Positions 514 to 58,529 of a DNA stretch of 64,000 nt are shown piece after piece (within the stretch, counting starts at the first letter, position 1; every line of letters starts with the position of its first letter). The notes below the pieces were generated by a model. That model made no database searches, was not told the origin of the DNA, and saw only the letters and a list, made by a program, of their open reading frames with translations. The translations under genes were made by a program, and so were the position numbers. This stretch comes from Eledone cirrhosa (Eukaryota), in assembly GCA_964016885.1 (NCBI GenBank), contig OZ024749.1, positions 28,210,001 to 28,274,000 of the forward strand, read 5' to 3'.

Positions 514-579
514 ATCAACAGTCCAAATCTCAGCCAGTTATCCAAATGGAACTAAACTGACCAGACAACAACTAAAGAC
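514..579 (+). CDS. Internal exon of type I membrane protein (cadherin-related-like); extracellular membrane-adjacent segment STVQISASYPNGTKLTRQQLK(T)
   Basis: Acceptor tgttgttctacag|A, donor AC|gtaagt; 66 nt, phase 2-2, in frame with exon at 1417; NGT sequon. Confidence 0.8.
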
Positions 580-1416: not shown

Positions 1417-1590
1417 TTTGGTTCTGAAAAATAAATCTGTTCTACAGAAGATTTTTAAAGAAAAAAGTTCTGATAAAGATCTGAAGTCTTGGAACTTCCC
1501 CCCTCCAGAGTTATCTATCCTTATCCTGGCATGTCTCTTATTTATCTGCTGTCTTGTCTCTATCTCTATAATCTGCTTGAAACATAAAAT
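1417..1590 (+). CDS. Transmembrane exon of type I membrane protein (LVLKNKSVLQKIFKEK...PPELSILILACLLFICCLVSISIICLKHK)
   Basis: Strong polypyrimidine acceptor cttttcctcaccacag|T, donor AT|gtaagt; 174 nt phase 2-2; ~23 hydrophobic residues followed by KHK stop-transfer. Confidence 0.88.
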
Positions 1591-2992: not shown

Positions 2993-3378
2993 TGTAGGGG
3001 CAGAGTCCTCAAACACACTTTCTACTGGGTCCTGTTAGAAGCAACAGTCTCCAACTGATCTGGATAGATCCCCAAGCTCATAGATATTATCCAACCATCT
3101 TGCTCAAGGTCATACCCTGGGTCTCCTGCTGGTCGATTTTGCCTGTAAAATCTGTCCAGTGATTCTTTCCTGAGACATTCTGACCACATATCCATAGTAT
3201 CGTAACTGTGATTTCTCAATTCAGAGAAGTAGCAGATCTACTTGGAGTAACTCTTTGATCTCTGAGCTACACCCTCTGTCGAGTAACGTTATTCCAAAGA
3301 CCTTTCGGAGAAACTCCATTCTCCATTCCGGCCACTTGCATTCGCGAACATATTCTTTCAGACATTACCCAAGATTCA
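2990..3378 (-). mobile_element. RTE-clade LINE 3' fragment, decayed
   Basis: Minus translation ...MEFLRKVFGITLLDR...IEKSQLRYYGYVVRMSQERITGQILQAKSTSRRPR..ARWLDNI with stops; same 3' end at 10757-10830 and 50490-50555. Confidence 0.75.
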
Positions 3379-3580: not shown

Positions 3581-4087
3581 TATAATATATATATAATATA
3601 TATATATATAATGTTTCCTTACATAACCCTACTCAATAATGAAATATAAGCCTAAACTATAATTACTTGGTTCATTAGAATTTAAATTAAAACTACAACA
3701 GAAGACTCACTTTCTACCAGAAACCTTTCAACATGTGTATGTATATTCTTCTGGTTTCATTATTTTATAAATTTTCAATATTAGAGAGATAGCTGGTTTC
3801 TAATATACACACAAGATTCTTTCATTGCAATTTAGACAACATCAACTAGGTAAATATGTCTGCATGCATACATGTATGGGTGTGTGTGTGCAGGTATAGA
3901 TGCTATTGTATGTGTGGATCTGTATGCTTTGAGTTATATGTGTGCATGTACATATGTTTTGTTTGTTTGTTTGTGTGCTTTGAGAGTGCTTCCCACATTT
4001 GTGTGAGTGAGGGGTGGTGGAGTGTATGCAAACCTTTAATTAATAAGTTCTAATTAATTTCACCTTTGTTTTTTTTTGTTTTAACAG

Positions 4088-5294
4088 TGTAATGAGTAAC
4101 TGTCAGCTTTTGGAGAATCTCAGCAAAAAAAACACTTTCTACGATTCTGCTGATTTAACTGTCACAACAGTCACAAATAATGGTCAGCACCGGAGTTCTT
4201 CAAACTCCAACAGAAGCAACAGGACATCTATAATTAACCATACTTTCGAATTTGACTCCGATTCTGGTCGTCATAGCAACGAAAGTAAAACTAACCACAC
4301 AGACGAGACCAGATTCCAGACTTCCACAGTTTCTGTGAACAGAAGTCGTCGGATTCGAAGTCACAGACATGGCCGAGACAGTGGTGGCAGTGGCAGCGAT
4401 GGTAGTGGTGGTGGTAGTGGTGGTGGTAGTGGTGGTGGTGGTGGTGGTGGTGGTGGCTGCAGTAATTATTTAGAATCTGAGAAGCAGAGAAGTCGTCCAG
4501 TGAAGTCTTCCATGTTATATCACTATGACGACAGCGTCTCACGTAGACACCGGGACTGTAATAAAACCAAACATACATATGAAAACATCGAAGAGTCATC
4601 TGATTGTGGATCGGAGATGTTATGGACTGGAAATGTGTATGATAAACCGGATGAAATTCCATTTGATAGGAACTATCCGGAAAGTATTGCTGATTTGTAT
4701 AACGAATCGGACGATAACACGTATGAGATTCCAAACACAGTATCATCATCGAAGGACAGTTTATATGAGATGTATGATAAACCAGATTCACCACATACAA
4801 ATAACCTCTACGACATTGTCGATGATCCTTCAACAAAGGATTTGTTCAGGGAAAATATTAACGTTGACGGATCTTGTTCTGGTTCGTCTCACATCTATAG
4901 CAATGTTGTTACACATCATTACGAACACATCGACTCGGACAGTGATATCCCAAGTGAGCCACACCCAGATTATATAACGACTGGCTCAGAACTATCAGAC
5001 ATATCAGATGAGCCATCGTTACAAACCCCATGTGGCTCACTAACCACAGTATCTTATTCCTCCATATCAACATCACACAGCAACTTACAGTTAGATTTAT
5101 ATTCCTCCACAAACAAACATCGCTCTTCTAAGAGCAGGGACAAAACCCTTCAGAAAATTATAGGGCTCTTGGAACTCAGCCATTCCTCAGCTTCTACATC
5201 AAGGGGTTGTCAGGCTTGCCCTTTACCTCCACGGGATTACAATACCCAAAATAATAAGACATCACATTTTAATGCCTCCATGACTCAGTTATGA
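4088..5294 (+). CDS. Terminal coding exon: ~400-aa disordered, Tyr/Ser-rich cytoplasmic tail ending in class I PDZ-binding motif (MTQL*)
   Basis: Acceptor tttttttgttttaacag|T at 4088 completes codon AT|T from TM exon; 1.2-kb open frame in non-repeat sequence; motifs YENI, YDKP x2, YEIP, YSNV, YEHI, PHPDY, PPRDY. Confidence 0.88.
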
Positions 5295-22409: not shown

Positions 22410-22735
22410 GCTGCGACACTTTAGTGTGTCACTGATGATCTGCAGGTCTCATGGTACTTTAATGTGTCACCAATAATCTTCAGGTGTGCTGTGATACTTT
22501 AGTGTCATAGGTAATCTGTAGGTCTGTCATGCCACTTTAGAGTGTCACCAATAAACGCTAGATGTGCTGAGACACTTTAGTGTGTCACCGATCAGTCCTA
22601 GGTGTATCACAACACTTTACTGTGTCACCAATTATCTCTAGGTGTGTCACAAGACTTTAGTGTATCACCAATAATCTATAGATGTGTTGCGACATTTTAA
22701 TGTGCCACTAATTATCTCTAGGTATGTCATGAAAT
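22410..22735. repeat. ~40-bp minisatellite (GACACTTTAGTGTGTCACCAATAATCTCTAGGTGTG), possibly from a hAT-type MITE subterminus
   Basis: About 8 copies with internal palindrome gacac...gtgtc. Confidence 0.75.
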
Positions 22736-22761
22736 TGATCAAATCAGAGCAATTTTTATGA

Positions 22762-23195
22762 ATATCTGACTGTGGTGTATATATATTTGACAATGGTGTA
22801 TATATCTGACTGTAGTGTATATATCTGACTGTAGAGTATATATCTGACTGTAGAGTATATATCTGACAGTGGTGTATATATTTGACTGTAGTGTATATCT
22901 GACTGTAGTATATATATATCTGACTGTAGTATATATATCTGACTGTAGTATATATATCTGACTGTAGTATATATATCTGACAGTGGTGTATATATTTGAC
23001 TGTAGTGTATATCTGACTGTAGTATATATATATCTGACTGTAGTATATATATATCTGACTGTAGTATATATATATCTGACTGTAGTGTATATATATCTGA
23101 CTGTAGTATATATATATATATATCTGACTGTAGTGTATATATATCTGACTGTAGTATATATATATCTGACTGTAGTATATATATATCTGACTGTA

Positions 23196-23235
<40 letters not shown>

Positions 23236-26200
23236 CTGTAGTGTATATATATCTGACTGTAGTGTATATATATCTGACTGTAGTGTATATATCTGACTAT
23301 AGTATATATCTGACTGTAGTATATATATCTGACTGTAGTATATATATCTGACTGTAGTATATATATCTGACTGTAGTATATATATCTGACTGTAGTATAT
23401 ATATCTGACTGTAGTGTATATATCTGACTGTAGTGTATATATCTGACTGTAGTGTATATATCTGACTGTAGTATATATATCTGACTGTGGTATATATATC
23501 TGACTGTGGTATATATATCTGACTGTAGTATATATATCTGACTGTAGTATATATATCTGACTGTAGTGTATATATCTGACTGTAGTGTATATATCTGACT
23601 GTAGTGTATATATCTGACTGTAGTATATATCTGACTGTAGTATATATATCTGACTGTGGTATATATCTGACTGTAGTATATATATCTGACTGTAGTATAT
23701 ATATCTGACTGTAGTATATATATCTGACTGTAGTATATATATCTGACTGTAGTGTATATATCTGACTGTAGTGTATATATCTGACTGTAGTATATATATC
23801 TGACTGTGGTATATATATCTGACTGTGGTATATATATCTGACTGTAGTATATATATCTGACTGTAGTATATATATCTGACTGTAGTGTATATATCTGACT
23901 GTAGTGTATATATCTGACTGTATTGTATATATCTGACTGTAGTGTATATATCTGACTGTAGTATATATCTGACTGTAGTATATATATCTGACTGTGGTAT
24001 ATATCTGACTGTAGTATATATATTTGACTGTAGTATATATATTTGACTGTAGTATATATATTTGACTGTAGTATATATATCTGACTGTAGTGTATATCTG
24101 ACTGTAGTGTATATCTGACTGTAGTATATATCTGACTGTAGTATATATATCTGACTGTGGTATATATCTGACTGTAGTATATATCTGACTGTAGTATATA
24201 TTTGACTGTAGTATATATATTTGACTGTAGTATATATATTTGACTGTAGTATATATATTTGACTGTAGTATATATATTTGACTGTAGTATATATATCTGA
24301 CTGTAGTGTATATCTGACTGTAGTATATATTTGACTGTAGTATATATATTTGACTGTAGTGTATATATCTGACTGTAGTATATATCTGACTGTAGTATAT
24401 ATATCTGACTGTAGTATATATATCTGACTGTAGTGTATATATCTGACTGTAGTGTATATATCTGACTGTAGTGTATATATCTGACTGTAGTATATATATC
24501 TGACTGTGGTATATATATCTGACTGTGGTATATATATCTGACTGTAGTATATATATCTGACTGTGGTATATATATCTGACTGTAGTGTATATATCTGACT
24601 GTAGTGTATATATCTGACTGTAGTGTATATATCTGACTGTAGTGTATATATCTGACTGTAGTGTATATATCTGACTGTAGTGTATATATCTGACTGTAGT
24701 ATATATCTGACTGTAGTATATATATCTGACTGTGGTATATATCTGACTGTAGTATATATATTTGACTGTAGTATATATATTTGACTGTAGTATATATATC
24801 TGACTGTAGTGTATATCTGACTGTAGTGTATATCTGACTGTAGTATATATCTGACTGTAGTATATATCTGACTGTAGTATATATATCTGACTGTGGTATA
24901 TATCTGACTGTAGTATATATCTGACTGTAGTATATATTTGACTGTAGTATATATATTTGACTGTAGTATATATATTTGACTGTAGTATATATATTTGACT
25001 GTAGTATATATATTTGACTGTAGTATATATATCTGACTGTAGTGTATATCTGACTGTAGTATATATATTTGACTGTAGTATATATATTTGACTGTAGTAT
25101 ATATATTTGACTGTAGTATATATATTTGACTGTAGTATATATCTGACTGTAGTATATATCTGACTGTAGTGTATATATTTGACTGTAGTATATATATTTG
25201 ACTGTAGTATATATATTTGACTGTAGTATATATATTTGACTGTAGTATATATATTTGACTGTAGTATATATCTGACTGTAGTATATATCTGACTGTAGTG
25301 TATATATCTGACTGTAGTGTATATATCTGACTGTAGTATATATATCTGACTGTAGTATATATATCTGACTGTAGTATATATATTTGACTGTAGTATATAT
25401 CTGACTGTAGTATATATATATCTGACTGTAGTATATATATCTGACTGTAGTATATATATCTGACTGTAGTGTATATATCTGACTGTAGTATATATATCTG
25501 ACTGTAGTATATATATCTGACTGTAGTGTATATATCTGACTGTAGTATATATATCAGACTGTAGTGTATATCTGACTGTAGTATATATATTTGACTGTAG
25601 TATATATCTGACTGTAGTATATATCTGACTGTAGTATATATATCTGACTGTAGTATATATATCTGACTGTAGTATATATATCTGACTGTAGTATATATAT
25701 TTGACTGTAGTATATATATTTGACTGTAGTATATATATCTGACTGTAGTATATATTTGACTGTAGTATATATATCTGACTGTAGTATATATGACTGTAGT
25801 ATATATATCCGAGTGTAGTATATATATCTGACTGTAGTATATATATCTGACTGTAGTATATATCTGACTGTAGTATATATATCTGACTGTAGTATATATC
25901 TGACTGTAGTATATATATCTGAGTGTAGTATATATATCTGAGTGTAGTATATATATCTGAGTGTAGTATATATATCTGAGTGTAGTATATATATCTGACT
26001 GTAGTATATATATCTGACTGTAGTATATATATCTGACTGTAGTATATATATCTGACTGTAGTATATATATTTGACTGTAGTATATATCTGACTGTAGTAT
26101 ATATCTGACTGTAGTATATATCTGACTGTAGTATATATCTGACTGTAGTGTATATATCTGACTGTAGTATATATATCTGACTGTAGTATATATATTTGAC

Positions 26201-27629
26201 TGTAGTATATATCTGACTGTAGTACATATATATCTGACTGTAGTATATATATCTGACTGTAGTATATATATCTGACTGTAGTGTATATATCTGACTGTAG
26301 TATATATATCTGACTGTAGTATATATCTGACTGTAGTGTATATATCTGACTGTAGTATATATATCAGACTGTAGTGTATATCTGACTGTAGTATATATAT
26401 TTGACTGTAGTATATATCTGACTGTAGTATATATCTGACTGTAGTATATATATCTGACTGCAGTATATATATCTGACTGTAGTATATATATTTGACTGTA
26501 GTATATATATTTGACTGTAGTATATATATTTGACTGTAGTATATATATCTGACTGTAGTATATATTTGACTGTAGTATATATATCTGACTGTAGTGTATA
26601 TATATCTGACTGTAGTATATATGACTGTAGTATATATATCCGAGTGTAGTATATATATCTGACTGTAGTATATATATCTGACTGTAGTATATATCTGACT
26701 GTAGTATATATATCTGACTGTAGTATATATCTGACTGTAGTATATATATCTGAGTGTAGTATATATATCTGAGTGTAGTATATATATCTGAGTGTAGTAT
26801 ATATATCTGAGTGTAGTATATATATCTGACTGTAGTATATATATATCTGACTGTAGTATATATATATCTGACTGTAGTATATATATATCTGACTGTAGTA
26901 TATATATCTGACTGTAGTATATATATCTGACTGTAGTATATATTTGACTGTAGTATATATTTGACTGTAGTATATATTTGACTGTAGTATATATATTTGA
27001 CTGTAGTGTATATATATCTGTCTGCAGTATATATATCTGACTGTAGTATATATATCTGACTGTAGTGTATATATCTGACTGTAGTGTATATATCTGACTG
27101 TAGTATATATATCTGACTGTAGTATATATATCTGACTGTAGTATATATATCTGACTGTAGTATATATATCTGACTGTAGTATATATATCTGACTGTAGTA
27201 TATATATCTGACTGTAGTATATATATCTGACTGTAGTATATATATCTGACTGTAGTATATATCTGAGTGTAGTATATATCTGACTGTAGTATATATATAT
27301 CTGACTGTAGTATATATCTGACTGTAGTATATATCTGACTGTAGTGTATATATCTGACTGTAGTGTATATATCTGACTGTAGTATATATCTGATTGTAGT
27401 ATATATTTGACTGTAGTATATATATCTGACTGTAGTATATATATCTGACTGTAGTATATATCTGACTAGTATATATCTGACTAGTATATATCTGACTAGT
27501 ATATATCTGACTAGTATATATCTGACTTGTATATATCTGACTTGTATATATCTGACTTGTATATATCTGACTGTAGTATATATTTGACTGTAGTGTATAT
27601 ATATTTGACTGTAGTATATATCTGACTGC
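22762..27629. repeat. 4.9-kb compound minisatellite CTGACTGTAG(TA)nT, mostly 17-21-bp units
   Basis: Roughly 250 units of a fixed 10-mer with variable TA tract. Confidence 0.97.
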
Positions 27630-27769
27630 ATAAAATTAGACATGTAACTGGTGTTCATGTAGTTTAGTGTGGGATAAGGATTGGCAAATGAACTCATCTG
27701 AGGACAGCAACATGAATGCTCCTTCATTGGTCCTGACATGTGATATATTTAATTGTAAGGTGATCTGTA

Positions 27770-53800: not shown

Positions 53801-56800
53801 TCATTTGTTCAATGGCAGATATCAAGATTTCTGAGATGCTAAAGTGAGCATTCTCCTGCAACACAGGATATGGACAGGATATGAACTATATGACCTTTTA
53901 ACTTCACCAAACTTCAATGCCAAAATTCAACAACAACAACATTGGCACAAGTCCACCAATTTTTTTTTTGTCTGTGTGTGTGTGGAGGGAGTTAATTATA
54001 TCGACCCCAGTACTTGAGTGGTACAGAGGGATGAAAGGCAAAATTGACTTTAGTGAGATTTGAACTCAGAATAATGGTTTCTGATTTAGGCACAAGGCCA
54101 ACAATTTTAGGGGAGAGGAAAGTCAATTGACCCCAGTACATTACTGGTACTTTATTTTATCGACCTCATAAGGATAAAAGGCAAAGCTAACCATGGCAGA
54201 ATTTGAACTCAGAATGTAAAGGGACGTAACTATATACCACAGAGGATGTTGAATGACCCTCTACTGATACTCCCAATTCACTACCCTTAATAATTGTTTT
54301 TACTTTAGGCACAAGGCCAGCAATTACCCAGTACATTACTGGTACTTCATTTTATCGACCCAGTAAGGATGAAAGGCAAAGTTAACCTCGGCGGGATTTG
54401 AACTCAGACTGTAAAGGGACGTAACTATGATAGAAAGCATGGCGTCCAACCCTCTACCGATACTGCCAATTCACTACCCTTAATAATAGTTTCTAATTTA
54501 GGCATACATTTCATTTGGGATGTGGCTTAGTGGTTAGAGTGTTGGACTCCCAATCATAAGGTCAATCATAAGGTTCAATTCCTAGACTTGGCAACATGTT
54601 CTTGAGCAAGTTACTTTATTTAACAGTGCTCCTTCTGCCAGGAATTGAAACTGGAAAGACAAATGGAGACATTGTTGCCTTGGTTTAATCTGACAACTAA
54701 CTTCATTCTATTTTTAAAAATCGGAAACCATTATTGTTAGTTTTTTAAAATTAAAGTACAAGGCCAGCAATTTACAAGGAGGATGTATATGTAAAGGTGT
54801 GTACACCTGAGAGGGTATATATGTAAAAGTGTGAATACCTGAGAGGGTATATATGTAAAGGTGTGTATACCTAAGAGGGTACATATGTAAAGGTGTGTAT
54901 ACCTAAGAGGGTATATATGTAAAGGTGTGTACACCTGAGAGGGTATATATGTAAAAGTGTGTATACCTGAGAGGGTATATATGTCAAGGTGTGTACACCT
55001 GATGGGGGAATATATGTAAAGGTGTGTACACCTGAGAGGGTATATATGTAAAGGTGTGTATACAAGTGGGTATGTGTGTATATATATATATATATATAAA
55101 GGTGTATATACAAGAAGGATATATATGTAAAGGTGTGTATACAAGGAGGGTATATATATATATATATAAAGGTGTGTATACACGAGTGGGTATATATGTA
55201 AAGGTGTATATACAAGAAGGGTATATATGTAAAGGTGTGTATACAAAGAGGGTATATATGCAATCAAATATATACTTGTATACCTGAGAGGGTATATATG
55301 TAAAGGTGTGTATACAAGAAGGATATATATGTAAAGGTGTGTATACAAGAAGGATATATATGTAAAGGTGTGTATACAAGAAGGATATATATGTAAAGGT
55401 GTGTATACAAGGAGGGTATATATATATATATAAAGGTGTGTATACATGAGTGGATATATATGTAAATATGTGTATACACGTGAGGGTATATATGTAAAGG
55501 TGTGTCTACCCAGAGGATATATATGCAAACGTGTGTGTACCTGAGAGTGTATATATGTAAAGTTGTGTATACAAGAAAGAGTACATATGTAAAGGTGTGT
55601 ATAACTGTGGGAGTATATATGCATGAGGGGGTGTGTACTTGAGAGGGTGTGTGTACATGAGAGGGTGTGTGTACATGAGAGGGTGTGTGTACTTGAGAGG
55701 GTGTGTGTACTTGAGAGGGTGTGTGTGCAAGACAGTGCATAGATAATAGGATATGTGTAGAGAGGGTGGATGTAAATGAGAGAGTAAAAGTGGAAGATTT
55801 ACCCTGTCTAAGTTGGCACAGGTGTTGAAGTCTTGAGAGGTGAGGAAACTGATAAGAGATTGTCCAGGAACTGGATGGGTTAAGTTACCGTCATGACAAC
55901 ATATCGAATGTGGATTGGTGAACGTGGCTGAAACAAAGAGAAGCTTTGATTTTCACAAGTTTCACCATATATATATCATCATCCTCGTTTAATGTCCACT
56001 TTCCACGCTAGCATGGGTTAGACGGTACATGGCTCAGTGGTTAGAGCATTGGCCTTGCAATCGAAAGGTTGTGAGTTCAATTCTCAGACCGGGTGATGTG
56101 TTGTTTCCTTGAGCAAGACACTTTATTTCACATTGCTCCAGTTTACTCAGCTGTAGAAATGAGATGATAGGGACTGGGGTCCCTATCATTCCACTGCAAA
56201 GTGGTCGTGGAGCTGTCACGGCAAAAAAGCACCCAGCACTCACTGTAAATGGGGTTGGTGTTAGGAAGGGCATCCAGCTGTAGAAATCAAGCCAGAATCA
56301 GTTCCCGTCCCACCCTTGCAAGCAGGGAAAAAGTGGATGTAAAATGAAATGATGATGATGATGATATATATATATATATCATCGTTTTACGTCCGTTCTT
56401 CCACGCTAGCATGGGTTAGACAGGTTGTCCTGTTGTGAGCAGTGTCCAGTCGGCTGACCTTGTCTTGCTCATACAGGAATTGATTTTGGCTTGATTTCTA
56501 AAGCTGGATGCCCCCCCTAACACCAACCACTTTTACTGTGTGGGCTGGGTGCTTTTTTTGCTGTGGCACCTCCACGACCACTTTGCAGTGGGGGTGGAGG
56601 GGGGGGGGGCATATTGTCTATATACTTCAGCATCGGCTTGTTCCTGGGGGGGGGGGGGGTCGTCTGTATTACTGCATGACGCCAGAGGTCATGGTCGTGT
56701 GTCATTGCCCTTGAGAGGTGCAATTGGGTAAGGTTGGCCTTTATCACCTCATCCCAGGTCTTCTTGGGTCTCCCCACTCCATGGCTTCCATCGACTTCCA

Positions 56801-58529
56801 GTGTTCTGCACCTTTTTATGCAGCTGTCATCCTTCATATGCATCACATGTCCATACCAACGTAACCTCTCCTGCACACAGCATTTGATTCCTCTTATGCT
56901 CAGTCTCTCTCTCAATTCGTTTATACTTTGCCGTTCGCGTATATTACTATTACACATCCATCGGAGCATGCAAGCTTCGTTTGTTTCTAATCTCCGCAAG
57001 TCTACAGACAGCGCCCAAGTTTCTCTTCCATGTAACATTGCTGTTCGTATACACGCATCATACAGTCTGCCTTTCATTTTGAGGGAAAAGCCTTTTGCAG
57101 CTAGCAGTAGCTCTCTGAACTTCTTCCATCCTGTTCTTACCCTAGTTATTGTACTTTCCAAACACCCACCTCCTCTGCTAATTCGGTCACCTAGGTAGCA
57201 GAAGCTGTCTACTGTTTCTACAGAGCCCTCCCAGAGTTTGGTGGTGCTTGTTTCATGTGGTCGTTTGCTGCTTGCTGTCCCAGCACAGCTGCTACATATG
57301 AAGCCTACATTCTTAGTTAAACTTTCTGAGATCCCACTACATCTCTTGTGTACCCATTGTTTGCATTTGGGGCATAAGATGGAGTTCCTACCTACACTTT
57401 TCCTACATACTGAGCAAGGCCATTTCCCTGAGGGAATCTGGGTTCTGTTTTCTCGTCTACTTACAAGGACCTTAGTCTTTGTCAGGTTGACTTTGAGGCC
57501 CCTTCTTTCTAGTCCCTGCTTCCATGTTTGAAATTTCTTTAGTTCCACCATGATTCAGTTATAAGTGCGAGATCATCCGCATACAGGACTTCCCATGGGC
57601 ATCCGGTCTTAAGCTCCTCTGTTATTGCCTGCAAAACTATAATGAACAGATGAGGGCTAAGAACAGAGCCCTGGTGGACACCGACCTATATGCTAAATTC
57701 CTCGCTATATATATACGTATATATATATATATATATATATCAGTAGGCACCTCTTAACCAAATATACCCCCCCCCTGCCATCAACACCACCCCTTTCTCT
57801 GTTAAGTATGTTGGTAACACAACATCCAGTCCTAAATAAATGAAGTCGTGTAGGTGTCACGACAAAAAAAACACACAGTCCACGGTGTAATGTGGCCGTG
57901 TAGGTAACATGGTAAAAACCTCCCAGTCCACACTGCAAACGTGGTTGATGTTAGGAAGGGAATCCAGCCATAGAAAACCTGCCAGGCAGTCCTATACGAG
58001 CGAGGCGACCAATCTTGCTTCAAGTGGGACAATTCCCGTCTAAAACCATGTTAGCGTGGAAGATAGATGTTAAACGATGATGATGATGATGATATATATA
58101 TCGTCATCATCATCATCATCATCAATGTTTAACGTCCGTGTTCCACGCTTGCATGGGTTTGGACGGGGGTAGTCCCACTTGAGGCAAGAGTGATTGTCTT
58201 GCTCGCATAGGACTGTCTGGCAGGTTTTCTACAGTTGAATGCCCTTCCTAACACCAACCACATTTATGTTAAGTATTCTGTAAGGTTTGTCTAGTTTCTT
58301 GAAACCTTTGGTAATGGAATAATTATATTGTGTTATGTAATTATATATATGTATAAATATTATATAATATGTAGATCTCCATACATTGGTAGAATATAGA
58401 CAGCTTTATTATAAATAGAAATGACTTCTACATGACTAGAACTGTTTCATTCGTATGAAATCATCAGGACATTACTGATGATTTCATATGAATGAAACAG
58501 CTTTAGTCTCGTAGAAGTTATTTCTATAA

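Follow-up and report, generated by a model that had tools for sequence, protein, structure and literature searches.

The window analysed here is a 64,000-nucleotide stretch of Eledone cirrhosa DNA, and it carries at positions 4088-5294 the terminal exon of an intact seven-repeat atypical cadherin gene. The cytoplasmic tail encoded by this exon holds an array of tyrosines in acidic contexts, and comparison of orthologous sequences indicates that the array is real and under selection. By analogy with known receptor tails, we consider it reasonably probable that the array works as a multivalent phosphotyrosine scaffold, combined with a PxxDY switch and a PDZ anchor in the cadherin tail.

The span flagged in the initial annotation (4560-5105) lies inside a 415-codon open frame on the + strand (4047-5294). 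Exon 23 of 25 (514..579, +), recognised by tblastn and AG/GT splice sites and in frame with exons 24 and 25, encodes the C-terminal part of a membrane-adjacent (MAD/SEA-like) domain. Exon 24 (1417..1590, +), also in frame, encodes the end of this domain and the single transmembrane (TM) helix, and is 76% identical to residues 833-889 of the O. sinensis protein. Exon 25 (4088..5294, +), which had a single match in the genome, encodes nearly the whole cytoplasmic tail (401 aa) and the stop codon, and its acceptor site at 4088 keeps the frame of the TM exon. The gene model, built from 38 kb upstream with the O. bimaculoides protein as a guide, was intact: it comprised 25 exons and 1291 aa, 24 of 24 introns were GT-AG, and 937 residues were identical to the guide, with one internal exon possibly a few codons short. 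Beginning with a signal-like N-terminus, the protein continues with about seven cadherin repeats, the membrane-adjacent domain and a single TM helix, and the tail takes up about 400 aa; calcium-linker motifs, the N-terminal hydrophobic stretch and the TM helix were all present in our own model. The initial annotation had proposed an adhesion receptor, and the span indeed belongs to the cytoplasmic tail of a cadherin, as judged from the gene model, the cadherin superfamily match of the orthologue P0003 (PF00028, E 1e-47) and the longer relatives matched by the tail (Octopus sinensis, O. vulgaris and Argonauta, 63-71%; labelled cadherin-23-like or Fat-like). No Pfam family was found on the tail, the catenin-binding domain of classical cadherins included, and the orthologues had none past the ectodomain repeats, which sets them apart from classical cadherins. 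The segment 4471-5400 showed no differences from three contigs of one DNA sample, which may be the source sample and not independent support, and no RNA samples were listed as carrying the window sequence.

Sequences similar to other exons of this gene were noticed in the genome. The intron that precedes the intact copy of coding exon 11 (locus L003, 3286) holds two degenerate versions of the first part of this exon, with stops inside (2533-2622 and 3177-3275). About 90 kb upstream of the gene start, a stretch similar to the first part of exon 15 (locus L014, 4915-4974; 80% over 20 aa) is either a displaced exon copy or a relic paralogue.

AlphaFold, run on four sequences, modelled the membrane-adjacent domain and the TM helix with confidence and left the tail unstructured, with pLDDT under 50; the tail is likely disordered according to this model, low pLDDT from a four-sequence alignment being weak evidence of disorder. 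For fold comparison the model of the cuttlefish orthologue was used. The top seven Foldseek hits of its membrane-adjacent domain were PCDH15 and CDH23 entries (E 9e-6 to 3e-4), and the domain aligned with MAD12 of PCDH15 (Z 11.7, rmsd 3.0, 90 aligned) and MAD28 of CDH23 (Z 11.4, rmsd 2.0, 83 aligned), but the ferredoxin-like domain of Nup54 tied at Z 11.7, so that the fold alone is not exclusive to PCDH15/CDH23. A ferredoxin/SEA-like domain before the TM helix places the protein among MAD-type cadherins. The PCDH15/Cad99C group is defined by 11 repeats, whereas about seven fit in the ectodomain of about 860 aa. The Pfam family PCDH15_12th (PF23206) had no match in this cadherin family, and the Atlas feature search returned nothing at or above 0.9, PCDH15 scoring 0.84-0.87, which is lead level only. 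In the PDB sequence search a PCDH15 chain was matched collinearly over 88-733, but at a lower score than generic cadherins, and the subfamily was not separated. In the accessible text of one study PCDH15 is reported absent from an oyster (PMC10734073); thus, the molluscan family could conceivably be a diverged PCDH15 stand-in.

Every tyrosine motif listed in the initial annotation was found in the + strand translation, and its count of 18 Tyr in the 401-aa tail was correct, 13 of them falling within 4560-5105 (+ strand codons at 4578, 4638, 4674, 4698, 4722, 4764, 4773, 4809, 4896, 4920, 4971, 5055 and 5100). The array had been described as dense. This holds for the acidic context, which is far above chance, but not for the number of residues: the raw count was at chance (18 seen versus 16.8 expected from the base composition of the exon, p=0.42) and clustering was marginal (12 Tyr in 140 aa, p=0.077). 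Tyr density was therefore discarded as evidence of function. Phe was depleted in the tail (7 versus 13.7 expected) and Tyr was not. Eight patterns were tried and were picked after the sequence had been seen, and among these Y-[DE]-x-[PVI] occurred 6 times versus 0.29 expected (0 of 5000 shuffles), Y-[DE] 9 times versus 2.5 (p=0.0002) and Y-x-x-[PVIL] 8 times (p=0.004); Y-x-x-P was weakly enriched (3 versus 0.72, p=0.026), and Y-x-N (2 versus 1.39, p=0.41) and the ITIM pattern (1 versus 0.74, p=0.54) stayed at chance level. Moreover, the enrichment of Y-[DE]-x-[PVI] recurred in 4 of 4 tails, with 6 occurrences here, 6 in O. sinensis, 4 in Argonauta and 3 in cuttlefish, against 0.28-0.39 expected.

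The array proper (tail aa 161-300; 4569..4988, +) was compared with a decapod sequence, the full-length cuttlefish orthologue P0006 (43%), which is near-identical to the Sepia pharaonis model P0007. The octopod-decapod comparison thus rests on one decapod lineage; no squid or Nautilus orthologue sequence was found, and a word search with the tail profile added only one further octopod-like tail. Of the 13 Tyr of the span, O. sinensis retains 12, Argonauta 11 and cuttlefish 8. Since aligners favour Tyr, each residue type was masked in turn. Under masking, Tyr was the best kept of 15 types in the comparison with cuttlefish (8/18, namely seven in the array and the juxtamembrane one), followed by His at 0.40, with Phe at 1/7 and Leu at 0/23. 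The seven array Tyr paired in this way are those at 4578, 4638, 4722, 4773, 4896, 4920 and 4971 (+); three are octopod-only (4674, 4764 and 4809, +) and one (4698, +) depends on the alignment. Identity to cuttlefish was 63/140 (45%) in the array, as against 395/866 (46%) in the ectodomain plus TM helix and 30/100 and 28/97 (29-30%) in the flanks of the array. The expectation that the Tyr motifs would form conserved islands was borne out against cuttlefish, where positions from Tyr to +3 were identical in 27/43 cases and the remaining array positions in 36/97 (p=0.004), but not among octopods alone (p=0.05-0.47), because the whole region is conserved among octopods.

By eye the conserved sites fell into two classes, one with Asn at -2 and Pro at +3 and the other with His at -2 and a hydrophobic residue at +3. 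Single sites drift: the Asn of the first Y-x-N is lost in O. bimaculoides, and site 4638 has lost the +3 Pro in Argonauta and the +1 Asp in P0025. Fixed assignments of readers to sites are therefore unsafe. Tyr 4698 had been put forward as a Y-x-N site for Grb2; its Asn is at +1, not at +2, and the assignment fails. The ITIM-like site (5049..5066, +) fared no better, the pattern being absent in 3 of 3 orthologues and its Tyr replaced by Cys in Argonauta and His in cuttlefish; judging from these sequences, it probably does not function as an ITIM.

The double occurrence of YDKPD had been attributed to internal duplication. The repeat itself is real, with 17 nt that are 94% alike at 4636 and 4771 and no extension, but duplication was not distinguishable from convergence, as the self-alignment of the tail compared with motif-preserving shuffles gave p=0.15-0.18. 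Both copies are already present in cuttlefish, and the origin of a second DNA pair (4571 and 4913, 76% alike) is equally ambiguous. Just before the array, a Gly/Ser run of about 30 aa (4372..4463, +) arose from triplet-repeat expansion and is missing from other octopod orthologues. A D-S-G-x-x-S pattern at about 4250-4285, which we take to be of the beta-TrCP phosphodegron type, is invariant in octopod tails; cuttlefish and several gastropods likewise have D-[ST]-G words in their tails. In the Sepia pharaonis model P0007 the reading frame is kept, but everything between the juxtamembrane motif and a point shortly after PxxDY is left out, the whole array with it; other cuttlefish records (P0006, P0020 and P0022) have the array in one frame. 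The gap in P0007 is either an error of gene prediction or an isoform that skips the array. Contigs no longer than 5518 bases encode P0006 in full, which suggests a spliced transcript containing the array.

The array appears to sit on an older, mollusc-wide layer of the tail. A search with a profile of the MAD-TM-tail region gave 23 matches, consisting of one octopus, one cuttlefish-like fragment and 21 others, and the names of 16 of the 20 relatives checked were those of a chiton, gastropod or bivalve. Database labels vary within the family (cadherin-23-like, Fat-like, cadherin-87A-like). In a quick tree against seven outgroup rows the family formed one clade (SH-aLRT 97; cephalopods 100), a weak test, as the members had been selected by the same family profile. 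The relatives align with cephalopods through the membrane-adjacent domain, the TM helix and a juxtamembrane Tyr motif (4134..4160, +; Tyr codon 4140). A PxxDY motif (4959..4973, +), the predicted ligand of an Eps8- or Nck-type SH3 domain, was found in 5 of 5 cephalopod tails, and 18 of the 21 tails from other relatives have it as P-x-P-D-Y (shuffle mean 0.09), which makes its Tyr at 4971 the oldest and most deeply conserved of the array. A second PxxDY match (5226..5240, +) was present in 4 of 4 octopod rows and not in cuttlefish. An RVxF-type motif, the docking pattern of PP1, directly follows P-x-P-D-Y in 16 of 21 non-cephalopod tails. It is kept further downstream in cuttlefish and absent from the four octopod rows; on these sequences, octopods have lost it. 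The tail ends in a class I PDZ-binding pattern (T-x-L; 5280..5291, +), and [ST]-x-hydrophobic, a predicted PDZ ligand, terminates 26 of 26 family tails, cephalopods included; the consensus is given in the accessible text of PMC2171266. The initial annotation had overlooked both this ending and the PxxDY motif with Tyr 4971.

Tyr content separates cephalopods from the rest of the family. There were 12-13 Tyr per 140 aa in cephalopod tails and 2-8 in the 21 other relatives, and the Tyr share was 4.4-4.9% in cephalopods and 1.4-3.5% in 20 of 21 non-cephalopod tails, one bivalve tail reaching 5.0%. Y-[DE]-x-[PVIL] sites numbered 4-6 in cephalopods and 0-3 elsewhere; scattered Y-x-N-type sites occur in the non-cephalopod tails, and an N-x-x-[YF] pattern is common to the relatives. 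This implies that the dense array is a coleoid elaboration, with cuttlefish as the decapod evidence. A bivalve paralogue clade (P0041, P0046 and P0047) has shorter tails that lack P-x-P-D-Y and RVxF, and the insect cadherin-87A-labelled protein P0014 has a Tyr-containing juxtamembrane word that resembles the molluscan motif by eye, with a weak profile score.

Comparison with known systems gives the tail its most plausible function. PCDH15/Cad99C, CDH23 and CDHR2/CDHR5 share with this protein the cadherin repeats, the fold of PCDH15 MAD12/CDH23 MAD28, a single membrane pass and a long tail whose last residues form a class I PDZ ligand, predicted in the present case. The 11 repeats of PCDH15/Cad99C (accessible text of PMC2171266) contrast with the seven or so counted here, and tyrosine is never mentioned in the portions available of the Cad99C and CDHR5 tail papers. 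Fly Cad99C supports microvillus outgrowth without most of its tail, which speaks against a major role for the tail (PMC2171266, partial text). At the level of sequence the tail has several conserved acidic Tyr motifs, as do adhesion receptors of the nephrin-Nck-N-WASP type. In nephrin, tail tyrosines phosphorylated by Fyn recruit Nck and clustering depends on phosphotyrosine valency (PMC4238058, partial text). Nephrin belongs to the Ig family and has three Nck sites. In this cadherin the conserved Tyr number at least seven, differ in their +3 class and are joined by PxxDY; the likeness is one of functional analogy, not homology. The initial annotation had spoken of a Cas-like platform. A stretch of repeated Tyr motifs, likely disordered here, is indeed shared with the substrate domain of p130Cas, whose motifs are phosphorylated by Src-family kinases for Crk and Nck (PMC3983058, partial text), but the comparison is loose: p130Cas is cytosolic and has 15 Y-x-x-P, about 20% Pro and fixed spacing (same partial source), as against 3 Y-x-x-P, 16 Pro in 401 aa (4%), a composition dominated by S, D, T, N and G, and a spacing altered in cuttlefish. 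The exact PxxDY pattern of the Eps8/Nck SH3 ligands CD3-epsilon and Abi1/E3b1 is found here, molluscan relatives included, but in a cadherin tail and, in the non-cephalopods mentioned above, directly before RVxF. According to the available text of PMC9407544, the Eps8 SH3 domain binds PxxDY and Tyr phosphorylation should disrupt binding, a disruption seen for CD3-epsilon with Nck1 and Eps8L1.

In the scaffold that we favour, adhesion would cluster the cadherin, and its acidic Tyr sites would be phosphorylated by Src- or Abl-type kinases. Nck/Crk-type SH2-SH3 adaptors may then dock on sites with Pro, Val or Ile at +3, and Grb2 on the two Y-x-N sites, with valency driving local actin assembly as in nephrin. 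The PxxDY motif would be bound by an Eps8- or Nck-type SH3 domain when unphosphorylated and released on phosphorylation, and a harmonin-type scaffold would anchor the tail through its C-terminal PDZ ligand. Coleoids would have built the dense array onto the older tail with PxxDY, RVxF and PDZ ligand. In the genome, an Eps8-type gene (E 3.8e-24) is followed some 25 kb downstream by two exons that look SH3-like by eye, and SH2 domains gave at least 35 matches. A SAM_3 match on contig C15, which presumably represents a CP2-type SAM, was considered as Eps8 and dropped, no SH3 being nearby.

Other explanations of the tyrosines were weighed against this scaffold. With the tail only loosely constrained, AT-rich DNA might have produced them incidentally and without a shared function, and the 18 Tyr against 16.8 expected from base composition would be in keeping with this. 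Yet the context enrichment (0 of 5000 shuffles), the conservation of the array at ectodomain level, the retention of Tyr under masking and the depletion of Phe but not Tyr have already largely refuted this reading, which we find scarcely tenable. The conserved sites could also be mainly unphosphorylated trafficking signals for clathrin adaptors that set the surface level or polarity of the cadherin. The sorting-signal consensus is Y-x-x-hydrophobic, to which Pro at +3 does not conform. Y-x-x-[PVIL] is in excess, sites 4578, 4809, 4896 and 4920 have Ile or Val at +3, and apical targeting by the tail is known for CDHR5, though there, in the text available, it acts through a PDZ ligand. This proposal is unlikely, given that Pro occupies +3 in three of the seven cuttlefish-conserved sites, that the acidic +1 residue is strongly enriched and that one or two signals are usually enough.

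It would be rather improbable, too, that the array binds actin-protrusion proteins (Eps8 SH3, myosin FERM, PDZ scaffolds) through a series of motifs independent of phosphorylation, with Tyr serving as anchors and not as kinase targets. The most deeply conserved Tyr does lie in PxxDY, a motif bound unphosphorylated, the relatives share the N-x-x-[YF] pattern and the PDZ ligand, and the ectodomain is of the microvillar and tip-link type, but this accounts for one or two sites and not for the six others whose offset profile places specificity at +1 to +3. SH2 domains read this side of Tyr. Recruitment of a tyrosine phosphatase of the SHP2/Corkscrew type by an inhibitory, ITIM-like receptor tail appears very unlikely: tandem SH2 domains could be bound by close pairs such as 4896/4920, which have Val or Ile at +3, but the strict ITIM pattern matches only once, no more than chance predicts, and none of the three orthologues scanned has it.

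Building on the scaffold reading, it can be imagined that coleoids turned a microvillar/tip-link-type cadherin into a self-contained force-to-phosphotyrosine transducer, an idea to which we give little credence. The tail would be held between the membrane and the PDZ anchor, a pull on the ectodomain would stretch the Tyr array and open it to Src-family kinases as in p130Cas, and the PxxDY switch would flip from Eps8 binding to SH2 binding. If true, this would be a mechanosensory cadherin signalling by kinases and not by channel gating.

Receptor tails with phosphotyrosine docking sites are common, and the general principle is not new. What appears to be undescribed is a mollusc-wide cadherin family with a tail code of juxtamembrane Tyr motif, PxxDY, RVxF and PDZ ligand, together with a coleoid-specific gain of the dense Tyr array and the octopod loss of RVxF. 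Our literature search found no description of the gene, the family or the array, with subscription papers mostly beyond its reach, including a 2017 octopus cadherin review (Wang and Ragsdale) that may describe the gene; five tail motifs had no match in about 58,000 characters of the PMC10734073 supplement, which may be incomplete. Should the array prove to be phosphorylated, a microvillar/tip-link-type cadherin would have converged on the nephrin design, and adhesion-coupled actin signalling in cephalopods would have a concrete candidate.

Further features were noticed along the window and the genome. The DNA at 22665-27748 is low in GC and strongly skewed, and its - strand has open frames of 960-1570 codons that overlap one another; these gave no convincing Pfam match, and the region is probably a long tandem repeat. 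A 345-codon frame at 56517-57554 (-) has a PHD-finger match (E 2.8e-7) and possibly comes from a transposable element. In locus L032 an intronless tensin-type PTB frame (1486-2079, -) stands head to head with an intronless frame (2209-2991, +) that resembles MAK16, and both may be retrocopies.
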